Below are positions 54,202 to 57,292 of a stretch of DNA of 64,000 bases, piece by piece. The notes under the pieces are model-generated. The model was given only the letters and a program-made list of their open reading frames with translations. It ran no database searches and was not told where the DNA came from. The stretch comes from a bacterium. GTDB lineage: Bacteria > Patescibacteriota > Minisyncoccia > Sungbacterales > HO2-52-23. The stretch covers positions 4,686 through 68,685 of the forward strand of contig JAUYPE010000006.1 of NCBI GenBank assembly GCA_030697705.1, given 5' to 3'. Numbering within the stretch: position 1 is the stretch's first letter; every line of letters starts with the position of its first letter. The position numbers were made by a program, and so were the translations under genes.

Positions 54202-54663
54202 ATGACTCTCCAAGAGCGGATTATCGCAGACATGAAGGATGCCATGCGGGCTCATGACGAGCTCCGTGTTTCTGTTTTGCGGATGCTTATCGCCGCGGTA
54301 AAAAACAAAGAAATTGCCGAGCGGGGACGAGGGAAGAGCGGTGAGTTGTCCGATGATGAGGTTTTGGCGGTATTCAAGACGGAGGTAAAAAAGCGGCGCG
54401 ACGGTGCGGAGGGATTCCGCGTGGGCGGGCGCTCTGAATCTGCGGAAAAAGAAGACGCCGAACGGTTGATGATCGAGCTCTATCTTCCTGCCGAACTCTC
54501 GGATGAGGAGATAAAAAAACTCGTCCAACCGCTTGCGGAAGGACGAGGTGCTGATGAGTTCGGTCGCGTTATGGGTGCGGCGATGAAAGCCGTTGCAGGT
54601 CGTGCGAACGGCGACCGTATCGGTGCAATCGTGAAGAAGATGCTTGGCGGGGTAAAGACCTAG
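54202..54663 (+). CDS. GatB/YqeY-domain protein
   Basis: LQERIIADMKDAMRAHDELRVSVLRMLIAAVKNKEI matches the YqeY N-terminus; ATG at 54202 chosen because the upstream part of the ORF is MITE copy F. Confidence 0.7.
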   Translation: MTLQERIIADMKDAMRAHDELRVSVLRMLIAAVKNKEIAERGRGKSGELSDDEVLAVFKTEVKKRRDGAEGFRVGGRSESAEKEDAERLMIELYLPAELSDEEIKKLVQPLAEGRGADEFGRVMGAAMKAVAGRANGDRIGAIVKKMLGGVKT

Positions 54664-55208
54664 CGGAGACAGCAGAACTGGAAGTCTAATTGATATCGGA
54701 AGCCACTGGTAAGATCTTCGGGATCTTCTGCGAATAGAATACGCTCGGCTCCGCAGATACGAAAAGGATCTCTTCTGTTCCAGTAGCATCTATACTCAAA
54801 ACCATCTTCGATCAGACAATTGGAAATTGGTCCCCGAAACAGAGATGTAGTGTCGACTCTCTTGAGCATGCTCTCCAAAAACGCGAATGTCTTTTTTACT
54901 TGCCTCGGATCTCCAAGAGCATACCCATCATACGCCATGTGTGCAATTGGAACAAAAGGACCGAACTCATCGGTGCGCTCAAAATACATCTCGCGGCCGA
55001 AAAATGGATTATCAAGCGGGCCAGTTCCGTCCCACTGGTCTGTAAAACGCCACTGCGGCCAGCGCTCGTCATTGAATGTATACATCCAGCCGCCATGAGA
55101 AAGTTGTATGGCTCTCGTCTCTCCTCCTGAAGCGTAGGTCTTCTGTTTTGCCGTAACCATGAACTCAAGAAAGTTATGGTCGTCAAGGAGTGTTTTTGGC
55201 TGTGCCAT
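54660..55208 (-). CDS. hypothetical protein
   Basis: 182 aa, W/F-rich soluble protein; no motif recognised. Confidence 0.45.
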   Translation of the reverse strand: MAQPKTLLDDHNFLEFMVTAKQKTYASGGETRAIQLSHGGWMYTFNDERWPQWRFTDQWDGTGPLDNPFFGREMYFERTDEFGPFVPIAHMAYDGYALGDPRQVKKTFAFLESMLKRVDTTSLFRGPISNCLIEDGFEYRCYWNRRDPFRICGAERILFAEDPEDLTSGFRYQLDFQFCCLR

Positions 55209-55637: not shown

Positions 55638-55958
55638 ATGAACACGGTACCGAAAAAAATACAGGAGGTCGTGGATAAAATTGTTCGGGAGTATCAACCG
55701 GAGAAAATAATTCTCTTCGGCTCATGGGCGTGGGGAACGCCACACGAAGACAGTGATGTGGATTTGTTTATTATGAAAGAGAGCGAGCAAAAAAGGATAG
55801 ATCGCGAGCGAGAACTAAGAAAAAAACTCTATGGTAATAGATTCCCGCCTCTGGATCTGTTTATGTATACACCCGCAGAAACGGCGCGCAGATTATCCAT
55901 GGATGATTTTTTTATAAAGGAAATTATAGAAAAGGGAAAAGTATTGTATGCAAAATAA
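55638..55958 (+). CDS. minimal nucleotidyltransferase (MNT) of an MNT/HEPN pair
   Basis: KIILFGSWAWGTPHEDSDVDLFI = GS...G...S/DxD nucleotidyltransferase motif; 106 aa; overlaps the HEPN gene by 11 nt. Confidence 0.75.
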   Translation: MNTVPKKIQEVVDKIVREYQPEKIILFGSWAWGTPHEDSDVDLFIMKESEQKRIDRERELRKKLYGNRFPPLDLFMYTPAETARRLSMDDFFIKEIIEKGKVLYAK

Positions 55959-57120
55959 ATTTTCTTCTCAAGAACTACTCGTAGCGGAGTGGATTAAACG
56001 CGGAGAAGACGACGAGCAGAATGTTCGTTCAATTCTTCTGCATCGCGATGGCACGCCAAATGCGGCTTGTCTTCTTTCACATCAGATGGCGGAGAAGTAC
56101 CTGAAAGCTTTTTTGGTTTTGACTAAAAAATGGTTTCCGAGAATACATCCATTGGATAAGTTGGTGGAACTTTGTGAAGAAATTGACATTTCTTTTAGAG
56201 AGTTAAATGATACTGCCGCTGATCTCAATCCGTTTTATACTCCCGCGCGATATCCGGGCGATTATCCTGATTTTTCGTGGAAAGATGCTGAAGAAGCATC
56301 TCTCTTAGCATTACGCATTAAAGAATTTGTACTCCCACGGCTTGAAACAGGAAGGGAAAAACAAGAAAAGAATGGTTTTGGTATCATCGGCATTTTGATC
56401 ACCGTTGCGACTATTGTGCTTGTCGGTGGTGGCGGGTTGTATGTGTGGGAGATTCAGCAACAAAAAGCCATTGAACAAATCGGGATTGAAAAAATCAAAG
56501 AAGGTCAAACGGTTCTATTTGGCAACGAAGCAGGCAAACTCTGCGGTCCGCAACCCCCGGTAATCTGTCAGGTGGGATTTGCGTTGGGATGCCGGATTGC
56601 CGACAAGCAATGGGGTTGCTATCCTGTTGATAACAGCGCTGATACCTCCACATGGAAGACCTACCGGAATGAAAAACATGGGTTTGAGGTGATGTATCCA
56701 ATTGGATTTACATTAAGTGCTGAAACAGAAAATGAAATAATATTTACCCACCGTCTGATAAGCGGATATCAAATTAGTATAAAAAAATATAATTGCGAGA
56801 ATATTAGCATTGATCGATGTAGTGTGCAAAACATTTTTGATGTTTCTAGGGAATCACTAGATGAGGTAATTGAAAACCACGAGTTCGTTAGTGAGGCACA
56901 GACGATAATAGTTGCTGGGCAAAAAGCCAAGACATTCACCTGGTTTACGATAGGAGATGGAGCGCGCTTGATACTTGTACCCCATCCAACAAAAAAATAT
57001 TTATATGATATTGGTGTGTCTTTTGGATTTGATCCGGGAAGTGGTAGAAACCGAGAAGATGTAGCACTGGATACTGAAACTGTTTCGATGCTCATCAATA
57101 GCTTCAAATTTACCAAATAA
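55948..57120 (+). CDS. HEPN-domain protein fused to a transmembrane segment and a 230-aa C-terminal extracytoplasmic domain
   Basis: N-terminal 130 aa: HEPN-like helices and ...LSHQMAEKYLKAFL...; then TM GFGIIGILITVATIVLVGGGGLYVW; Cys-containing beta-rich C-terminal domain; no stop codon or obvious internal start between the parts. Confidence 0.55.
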   Translation: MQNKFSSQELLVAEWIKRGEDDEQNVRSILLHRDGTPNAACLLSHQMAEKYLKAFLVLTKKWFPRIHPLDKLVELCEEIDISFRELNDTAADLNPFYTPARYPGDYPDFSWKDAEEASLLALRIKEFVLPRLETGREKQEKNGFGIIGILITVATIVLVGGGGLYVWEIQQQKAIEQIGIEKIKEGQTVLFGNEAGKLCGPQPPVICQVGFALGCRIADKQWGCYPVDNSADTSTWKTYRNEKHGFEVMYPIGFTLSAETENEIIFTHRLISGYQISIKKYNCENISIDRCSVQNIFDVSRESLDEVIENHEFVSEAQTIIVAGQKAKTFTWFTIGDGARLILVPHPTKKYLYDIGVSFGFDPGSGRNREDVALDTETVSMLINSFKFTK

Positions 57121-57142
57121 TTTTAGGACTTACGCATTTTAT

Positions 57143-57233
57143 CCGTCATTCAAGGTGTAGCGAAGGATTTTTCGTACGATTTCAGTATACTGAAAATAGT
57201 AACGGGATTCCTCGCGGGTGCTCGGAATGACGG
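57143..57233. repeat. palindromic MITE-like repeat, copy G (intergenic upstream of ftsA)
   Basis: ccgtcattcaaggtgtagcgaaggatttttcgtacgatttcagtatactgaaaatagtaacgggattcctcgcgggtgctcggaatgacgg. Confidence 0.75.
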
Positions 57234-57292
57234 ATAGGGGAGAGAGAAGGTCTCCTTTTGTTATCATTCTTTATTCTTACTTCTTCATTTCT

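Follow-up and report, generated by a model that had tools for sequence, protein, structure and literature searches.

The 64,000-nucleotide window studied here (contig JAUYPE010000006.1 of assembly GCA_030697705.1, positions 4,686 to 68,685), which belongs to a bacterium of the Sungbacterales (Patescibacteriota), contains a minimal nucleotidyltransferase (MNT) gene followed by an open reading frame (ORF) of 390 aa in which a HEPN domain continues into a single transmembrane (TM) helix and a further domain predicted to lie outside the cytoplasm. Judged by its homologues, this fusion of HEPN domain, TM helix and ectodomain is genuine and conserved. The interpretation that we prefer, held at somewhat less than even confidence, is that the pair belongs to the class II MNT/HEPN modules as a Patescibacteria-type variant obtained by horizontal transfer, in which the HEPN domain is tethered to the membrane and controlled by the MNT protein. 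The features of the locus, numbered from the first base of the window, are the following:

55638..55958, + strand: MNT gene, 106 aa, with a GSX10DXD motif and the Pfam matches Polbeta and NTP_transf_2.
55948..57120, + strand: ORF of 390 aa comprising HEPN domain, linker, prepilin-like TM helix, Cys module and PsbP-like ectodomain.
55948..56346, + strand: HEPN domain assigned to the class II / HEPN-T type, residues 1-133.
56146-56148 (H67), 56248-56250 (R101), 56251-56253 (Y102) and 56260-56262 (D105), + strand: residues of the HEPN domain invariant in the family.
56347..56379, + strand: polar/basic linker TGREKQEKN and then the G143/F144 prepilin-like junction, candidate cleavage site or hinge.
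56377..56448, + strand: TM helix F144-W167 (FGIIGILITVATIVLVGGGGLYVW), Kyte-Doolittle mean 2.36, with Gly at position +5.
56542..56619, + strand: four-Cys juxtamembrane module C199, C207, C215, C224 (LCGPQPPVIC...GC...WGC).
56635..57117, + strand: Mog1/PsbP-like alpha/beta ectodomain, residues 230-390, with DTSTWKTYRNEKHGFEVMYP at its start and a C-terminus of the [LI][SN][ST]FKF type.
57139..57268, + strand: downstream structured element, a ~100-nt hairpin followed by a terminator-like hairpin and a T-run.

An earlier note, made from the letters of the window, had described an MNT gene with a GS...G...DVD motif that overlaps the downstream ORF by 11 nt, and had taken both genes for an MNT/HEPN pair. 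The coordinates and the Pfam matches agree with this description. The motif reads G28 S29 X10 D40 V41 D42, and the MNT protein matched Polbeta (E-value 9.2e-12) and NTP_transf_2 (E-value 9.6e-10). The NCBIfam model MntA_antitoxin gave 35 bits, under its cut-off of 60, and PADLOC yielded candidate-system matches only (PDC-S09/M05A). In turn, the start of the 390-aa protein matched the HEPN family PF05168 over residues 13-128 with 66.6 bits (cut-off 22, E-value 2.8e-18). The pairing itself is also conserved: an MNT gene was found directly upstream, mostly overlapping, in the seven of seven fused loci that were looked up, their neighbourhoods being otherwise unrelated (recA, AbiEii, PIN, S15/NYN and others), and it was also upstream in the fused loci of GTDB genomes. 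As a separate observation, two Patescibacteria loci (L035 and L041) carry two class II MNT/HEPN pairs in tandem, in the order MNT-HEPN-MNT-HEPN.

The ORF of 390 aa contains no internal stop, as the earlier note had pointed out together with the reservation that a frameshift or a missed stop could separate the two parts. This was ruled out by the conserved architecture of the homologues and by the identical ORF called in two further assemblies, whose DNA is 100% identical and thus comes from the same population. A word-indexed search gave 14 homologues of 322-602 aa, with 33-43% identity and the same layout of HEPN domain, TM helix and C-terminal domain. When 1.84e9 cluster representatives were searched exhaustively with a profile, approximately 21 fused clusters came up, and further fused proteins were added by a third search, giving a total of about 38 distinct ones with 30-45% identity. 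Nearly all the fused homologues are from Patescibacteria, and the relatives present in species-representative genomes are almost all from Patescibacteria or, more broadly, the candidate phyla radiation (CPR). In the 13 fused proteins that were aligned, the W-K-T-Y-R-N...Y-P motif of the C-terminal domain was invariant.

The association between the HEPN domain and the TM-ectodomain unit was found in other forms as well. Split versions occur at three loci (L055, L074 and L046), where the TM-ectodomain gene begins 0, 4 and 9 nt after the HEPN stop, respectively; at L055 a single stop codon and then directly an ATG, in the same frame, separate the halves. A general three-gene operon of MNT, HEPN and membrane protein was discarded, since stand-alone HEPNs are mostly accompanied by unrelated downstream genes and these three are the only true split forms. 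In a neighbour-joining tree of the HEPN domains, which is weak as it was built from 131 columns and carries no support values, the fused forms fell into at least six clades among stand-alone HEPNs, and one clade comprised 11 clusters, sharing less than 50% identity, that are all still fused. Moreover, the same TM-ectodomain cassette is fused to class I HepT (PF01934, DUF86) in two proteins that show the full RX4HXY motif, P0018 (RNRLVHRY) and P0176 (RNILAHGY). P0018 and the class II fusion P0008 share 68% identity in this cassette, and an MNT gene lies upstream of P0018 (L004, 866-1957). Both class I fusions are independent of those seen in class II. Finally, at two loci, L012 (2767-5110) and L024 (2890-4708), a stand-alone TM-ectodomain paralogue is placed directly upstream of the MNT gene and the fused gene, and at L012 the Cys-rich part and the start of the PsbP-like part are nearly identical between the stand-alone paralogue and the fused copy. 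The split forms, the class I fusions, the recurrent fused clades and the upstream paralogues constitute genomic evidence for a functional link between the two parts rather than an accident.

By its family and its residue pattern, the HEPN domain of the window is of the class II / HEPN-T type. Its nearest relatives by sequence were the structural-genomics HEPNs 1wol, 1ufb and 1o3u; its predicted fold is the four-helix up-down HEPN bundle, and its structural neighbours were mostly stand-alone HEPNs and HEPN toxins such as 7ae2, 5yep and 8xdj. The proposal of the earlier note that the first 130 residues form a HEPN domain was therefore upheld, but the Rx4-6H motif expected there is absent, R101 being followed by YPGDYPD with no His. 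The residues invariant in the 13 aligned fused proteins were W15, D22, C41, Q46, E49, K50, K53, H67, Y97, R101, Y102, D105 and P107. In the AF0298-like group of HEPN-T domains of Anantharaman et al. (2013) another residue, often Asp, stands in place of the motif His, and a conserved His located upstream has been proposed as an alternative active site (PMC3710099). The window protein presents this pattern, with a conserved His (H67) upstream of R101, an Asp in the motif region (D105) and a conserved Tyr (Y102). As described by Yao et al. (2020), class II HEPN/MNT modules have no RX4HXY, keep the conserved Tyr, and their MNT keeps GSX10DXD (PMC7641770). On alignment, the putative active-site residues of the HEPN domain (H67, R101, Y102 and D105) and the GSX10DXD site of the MNT protein are intact.

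The known class II HEPN/MNT modules (PF05168 plus PF01909; HEPN-T, AF0298/TT1696-like; Makarova 2009, PMC2701414; Anantharaman 2013, PMC3710099; Yao 2020, PMC7641770) thus share with the window the overlapping upstream MNT gene with GSX10DXD, the conserved Arg without the motif His, the upstream conserved His and the conserved Tyr, as well as their mobility and varied neighbourhoods. However, the members known so far are either soluble, with a length of ~130 aa, or MNT-HEPN fusions, whereas in the window the HEPN domain continues at its C-terminus into a TM helix and then a surface domain. In the type VII toxin-antitoxin system HepT/MntA, of class I, MntA oligo-AMPylates the Tyr beside the RX4H motif (PMC7641770, PMC13000451). 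Its gene order and MNT catalytic motif match those of the window, in whose HEPN domain the Tyr adjoins the conserved Arg, and two relatives of the window C-terminal cassette, P0018 and P0176, are true class I HepT fusions; but RX4HXY is absent from the window HEPN, which hence is not class I.

Regarding the second half of the protein, the clear TM helix announced by the earlier note corresponds to the single hydrophobic segment of the 390 aa, F144-W167. There is no N-terminal signal peptide, and the six Cys (199, 207, 215, 224, 283 and 291) are all located after the TM helix. The lack of an N-terminal signal, the single TM helix and the even number of Cys found only after it imply a single-pass N-in/C-out topology, with the C-terminal ~220 aa predicted outside the cytoplasm. 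This placement is also suggested by the existence of the same TM-ectodomain unit as N-terminally anchored stand-alone proteins.

The ectodomain was beta-rich in the structure model, which together with the six Cys agrees with the Cys-containing beta-rich domain reported earlier, and it folded as an alpha-beta-alpha sandwich like PsbP/Mog1. When modelled by itself it gave a pLDDT (predicted local distance difference test) of 64, under that of the same region in the full-length model, the fold family being the same in both. Its match to Pfam PsbP_2 (PF18933) was sub-threshold (19.7-21.2 bits, cut-off 27), and the relatives P0020, P0021 and P0115 reached 40-56 bits. Its C-terminus is INSFKFTK, the family consensus being ILSTFKF, and the four-Cys juxtamembrane module is common to the window protein, P0004 and the stand-alone P0016. 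With the ectodomain alone as query, nothing was found at E<=1e-3 in the word-indexed protein database, as its sequence diverges too strongly beyond the WKTYRNE motif, and the exhaustive profile search was needed.

This domain is also the most changeable part of the family. Proteins P0028 and P0036 are 99% identical over HEPN domain and TM helix (residues 1-161) and unrelated immediately after the end of the TM helix (GGGWYAY), a sharp recombination breakpoint at which the surface domain is swapped and which is reminiscent of cassette exchange in pilins or surface antigens. In further fused relatives the TM helix is followed by DUF6970, by unassigned domains or by almost nothing (P0037, 181 aa). 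Since the ectodomain is exchanged, replaced or almost absent among fused relatives, the constant unit, as far as these comparisons indicate, is the HEPN domain plus the TM helix, the ectodomain being swappable or even dispensed with. Independently, the searches disclosed a large family of N-terminally anchored CPR proteins (P0038-P0167) with one to five tandem PsbP-like domains of the type W-K-T-Y-R-N-E-x-Y-G-F...Y-P / LSTFKF, which makes the domain a widespread building block of surface proteins; no literature was found on this family, and about one quarter of its members have prepilin-like MK..GF N-termini, with the canonical Glu+5 in some.

In the tethered arrangement that we tentatively prefer, the HEPN domain would stay at the inner face of the membrane, and the MNT protein would restrain it by nucleotidylylation of the conserved Tyr beside the Arg (Y102), by analogy with HepT/MntA (PMC7641770, PMC13000451). 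If MNT control lapsed, the HEPN would act as a dimer on RNA close to the membrane. What the C-terminal part would provide in all cases is membrane placement and lateral clustering, by which HEPN dimerisation would be set, and ligand sensing by the exchangeable ectodomain would be optional.

Membrane-associated bacterial HEPNs were described in 2013: DUF4145 with a WP-TM, Abi2/Swt1 with an N-terminal external domain plus TM, and HEPN-2TM-Zn-ribbon proteins (PMC3710099). In these, as in the window protein, a cytoplasmic HEPN is carried by a membrane protein that may receive an external input, and the "stimulus-dependent RNA degradation" proposed for them is an idea that applies here too. However, they belong to other HEPN families, with other topologies and TM types; none is paired with an MNT and none has a PsbP-like or prepilin-like part. 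The window protein fits none of the three groups, as it has a PF05168 domain at the N-terminus, one TM helix, no WP signature and no Zn ribbon. The earlier note called a membrane-tethered HEPN with a sensor-like external domain unusual. This architecture was not described in the literature searched for HEPN with transmembrane, prepilin or CPR terms, but membrane HEPNs with putative external sensors are known since 2013 in other families. Purely by analogy, the Ire1 / RNase L KEN-domain RNases of the HEPN superfamily (PMC3710099) combine a far-side sensor, a single TM helix, a HEPN-type RNase activated by oligomerisation and a nucleotide-using regulator; they differ in their opposite orientation (type I versus type II), in having a fused kinase instead of a separate MNT and in being eukaryotic. 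A second analogy is offered by the anti-sigma factors of the RseA/RseB type, which regulated proteolysis sets free, RseA being likewise N-in with a cytoplasmic effector, one TM helix and an external domain. Lastly, HEPN defence is triggered by phage tail proteins in Tha (PMC11087260) and HepS (PDB 9oik), which shows that a HEPN can have its activity linked to what happens at the cell surface or to phage entry; with respect to the window HEPN this is a functional analogy only.

Several points weigh against a tethered, MNT-controlled HEPN. First of all, the canonical Rx4-6H motif is missing and, according to the authors who defined the class, there is no biochemistry for class II HEPNs, whose RNase or toxin activity has never been demonstrated (PMC7641770); for this reason we infer only by analogy that the window HEPN could be an RNase toxin, and the mention of a nuclease in the earlier note has to be weakened. 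In addition, PADLOC had no match or model for the HEPN protein, and a scan of viral contigs detected no relatives and so gave no sign of phage-borne copies. The variability of the ectodomain means that no conserved signal input can be named. A dedicated external sensor, as the earlier note envisaged, is accordingly doubtful, the ectodomain being exchanged after the TM helix, replaced or nearly absent, with a generic Mog1/PsbP binding fold; a sensor coupled to the nuclease is plausible, without specific support. All the evidence is computational and comes from metagenome-assembled genomes (MAGs). Finally, a near-invariant Gly-Phe at the start of the TM helix is not explained by simple anchoring and suggests proteolytic processing.

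This junction, which had been overlooked in the earlier note, appears to open a different mechanism, the proteolytic release of the HEPN domain. In the window protein G143/F144 is followed by GIIGILITVATIVLVGGGGLYVW, that is, Gly at -1, Phe at +1 and ~20 hydrophobic residues, and the general pattern of the fused proteins, [polar/basic]-G/F-[G/S/T]-hydrophobic(~20), is that of prepilin (class III) signal peptides. The structure model showed a helix break at 143-144. Among the 32 aligned fused TM segments GF was the sole invariant position, and the TM helix started with GF in 30 out of 33 fused proteins versus 16 out of 67 unfused proteins of the ectodomain family (odds ratio 32, Fisher p 9e-11), counts that are not phylogenetically independent. 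GF is missing from the stand-alone paralogues of L012 and L024, whose fused copies have it, and from the split forms of L055 and L074, and thus it tracks the presence of the upstream domain. The stand-alone relatives of the GF type have short basic, prepilin-like leaders (MKNGFG..., MQKGFG..., MQKGFGLIGILIV..., MKLPSVNKGFALLEILIVL).

On these grounds, the protein might be a polyprotein in which a prepilin peptidase of the PilD/ComC type cuts G143/F144 at the cytoplasmic face, the HEPN domain being the leader of a type-IV-pilin-like precursor, a possibility that we hold to be less likely than tethering. Two products would then result, a mature surface protein and a soluble HEPN of ~143 aa, comparable in length to HEPNs that stand alone (128-146 aa). 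In this scheme HEPN release would be stoichiometric with the maturation of the surface protein, and blocked processing would leave the HEPN crowded at the membrane. This scheme best explains the conservation of GF and the easy interconversion of fused and split states, because cleavage would make both states nearly equivalent and frequent fusion and fission would be expected. The commonest family match for the fused TM segments was the Pfam model N_methyl (PF07963), obtained for 7 of 32 at E<=1 with a best value of 1.2e-5, and P0012, which has Glu+5, gave 21.9 bits as a fragment and 19.8 as full protein (cut-off 21.2). A profile of the fused segments favoured six canonical pilin N-termini, entered by hand, with a median of 24 bits versus 9.8 for non-GF anchors of the same family, and the NCBIfam prepilin peptidase-dependent protein model matched residues 137-174 of the window protein weakly (E-value 0.006).

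Compared with the type IV prepilins themselves (class III signals, PF07963), the window protein has the Gly at -1, the Phe at +1, ~22 hydrophobic residues and a polar/basic stretch before the Gly, and some members of its family have Glu+5 and reach the Pfam threshold. However, residues 1-143 constitute a folded domain and not a short basic N-terminal leader, so that the prepilin peptidase would have to accept a folded leader of ~143 aa (15 kDa). To our knowledge, such a leader is unprecedented for these enzymes. Position +5 is Gly (G148) in the window protein and Glu is likewise replaced by Gly in most relatives, the exceptions with Glu+5 including P0012, P0069 and P0152; the window segment gave no N_methyl match in Pfam, and the globular part is PsbP-like, not the alpha/beta roll of pilins. 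No pilin, PilD or PilB genes were found by a crude motif search, which covered the 64-kb window only and says little. Besides, Gly-Phe may equally be explained as a helix-breaking hinge followed by an interfacial aromatic residue.

A less probable explanation, which we consider improbable but not negligible, is that there is no functional coupling at all: a selfish MNT/HEPN cassette would have landed repeatedly beside abundant CPR surface-protein genes, and loss of a stop would have produced a tolerated read-through joining two proteins with unrelated jobs. The fusions are a tiny share of the HEPN family (~21 clusters versus thousands of HEPN matches), linkers are short, the TM-ectodomain family is very abundant with its one to five tandem domains, MNT/HEPN modules are found in unrelated neighbourhoods, and at L055 both halves lie in one frame with a single stop codon, directly before the ATG, between them. 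However, the fused clades are old, as exemplified by the 11 fully fused clusters with less than 50% identity, and the association recurs with two unrelated HEPN families. Furthermore, the fusions are strongly enriched for one TM subtype (91% versus 24%), HEPN domain and TM helix have been kept at 99% identity while the ectodomain was replaced, and chance adjacency must be rare because stand-alone HEPNs mostly have unrelated downstream genes.

Slightly lower still in our estimation, and regarded as improbable, is that the pair is not a toxin system, the MNT protein and the class II HEPN forming a two-subunit nucleotidyltransferase anchored to modify a small molecule or protein close to the membrane. 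The model for it is kanamycin nucleotidyltransferase, whose HEPN-like domain binds the substrate. PF05168 belongs to the KNTase_C clan, and class II HEPNs have neither the RNase motif nor biochemistry (PMC7641770). Nevertheless, the same TM-ectodomain cassette is carried by class I HepT with the complete RNase/AMPylation motif RX4HXY, the structural neighbours are mainly the stand-alone HEPNs and HEPN toxins (7ae2, 5yep, 8xdj), and the conserved residues H67 and R101 agree with the RNase site that PMC3710099 put forward as an alternative. As for a sequencing, assembly or gene-calling artefact joining two genes, it can be practically dismissed, for although the data are single-population MAG data and the three assemblies, 100% identical in DNA, are not independent, dozens of homologues sampled elsewhere show the same uninterrupted layout, their linkers being homologous, and no in-frame internal start exists near the junction.

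Returning to the locus, the flanks of the module are housekeeping genes, with HIT, S21, YqeY, a DUF5680 protein and YbeY upstream and FtsA and FtsZ downstream. The ATG of the MNT gene (55638) lies 1 nt after the ybeY stop, and the module looks co-transcribed with ybeY within a row of cell-division and ribosome-maturation genes. The G+C content of the MNT/HEPN module is 41%, with a G+C content at third codon positions (GC3) of 0.33-0.42, versus 56-57% and a GC3 of ~0.60 in ftsA/ftsZ. The GC3 is 0.33 in the HEPN part and 0.38 in the TM-ectodomain part, both being low, which suggests that they arrived as one unit; by composition, the whole module looks like a single horizontally acquired insert. 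A separate ORF of 182 aa on the - strand (54660-55208), between yqeY and ybeY, showed a weak and sub-threshold DUF5680 match (E-value 1.5e-4); its G+C content is also below that of the flanks and it may belong to the same acquired patch.

A spacer of 172 nt separates the fused gene from ftsA (true start ATG 57293). It contains a branched hairpin of ~100 nt (57139-57237), whose stem is closed by a perfect inverted repeat of 13 bp (TATCCGTCATTC.../...GAATGACGGATA) and whose fold z is -3.1, followed by the terminator-like hairpin and T-run at 57236-57268. This element probably closes the acquired module on its 3' side, as its boundary or terminator, though it might instead be a small repeat. Rfam gave no match in or around the module, the 57139-57268 element included, and no rRNA was detected in the 64-kb window.

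Few toxin-antitoxin-like modules are as abundant as the MNT/HEPN pairs. The class II (PF05168) modules have no known biochemistry or trigger, and the fusion hints that their site of action is the inner face of the membrane. Control of these modules might be exerted by clustering, or by a proteolytic release tied to the maturation of a surface protein or pilin. In the ultra-small CPR bacteria, which rely on pili and on contacts with host surfaces and whose defence is poorly understood, the attachment of the HEPN half to the cytoplasmic end of a pilin-like surface protein is a rare but recurrent arrangement, by which a domain of RNase type inside the cell may be linked to the surface. In addition, the results indicate that these bacteria possess a so far unrecognised family of surface proteins that are prepilin-like and have the PsbP fold. 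If the HEPN domain were indeed released, which we hold to be less likely than tethering, no earlier toxin-antitoxin or defence effector would be known to have its activity gated by the machinery that matures type IV pilins, and the protein would also be the first substrate of a prepilin peptidase to have a folded leader of 15 kDa.

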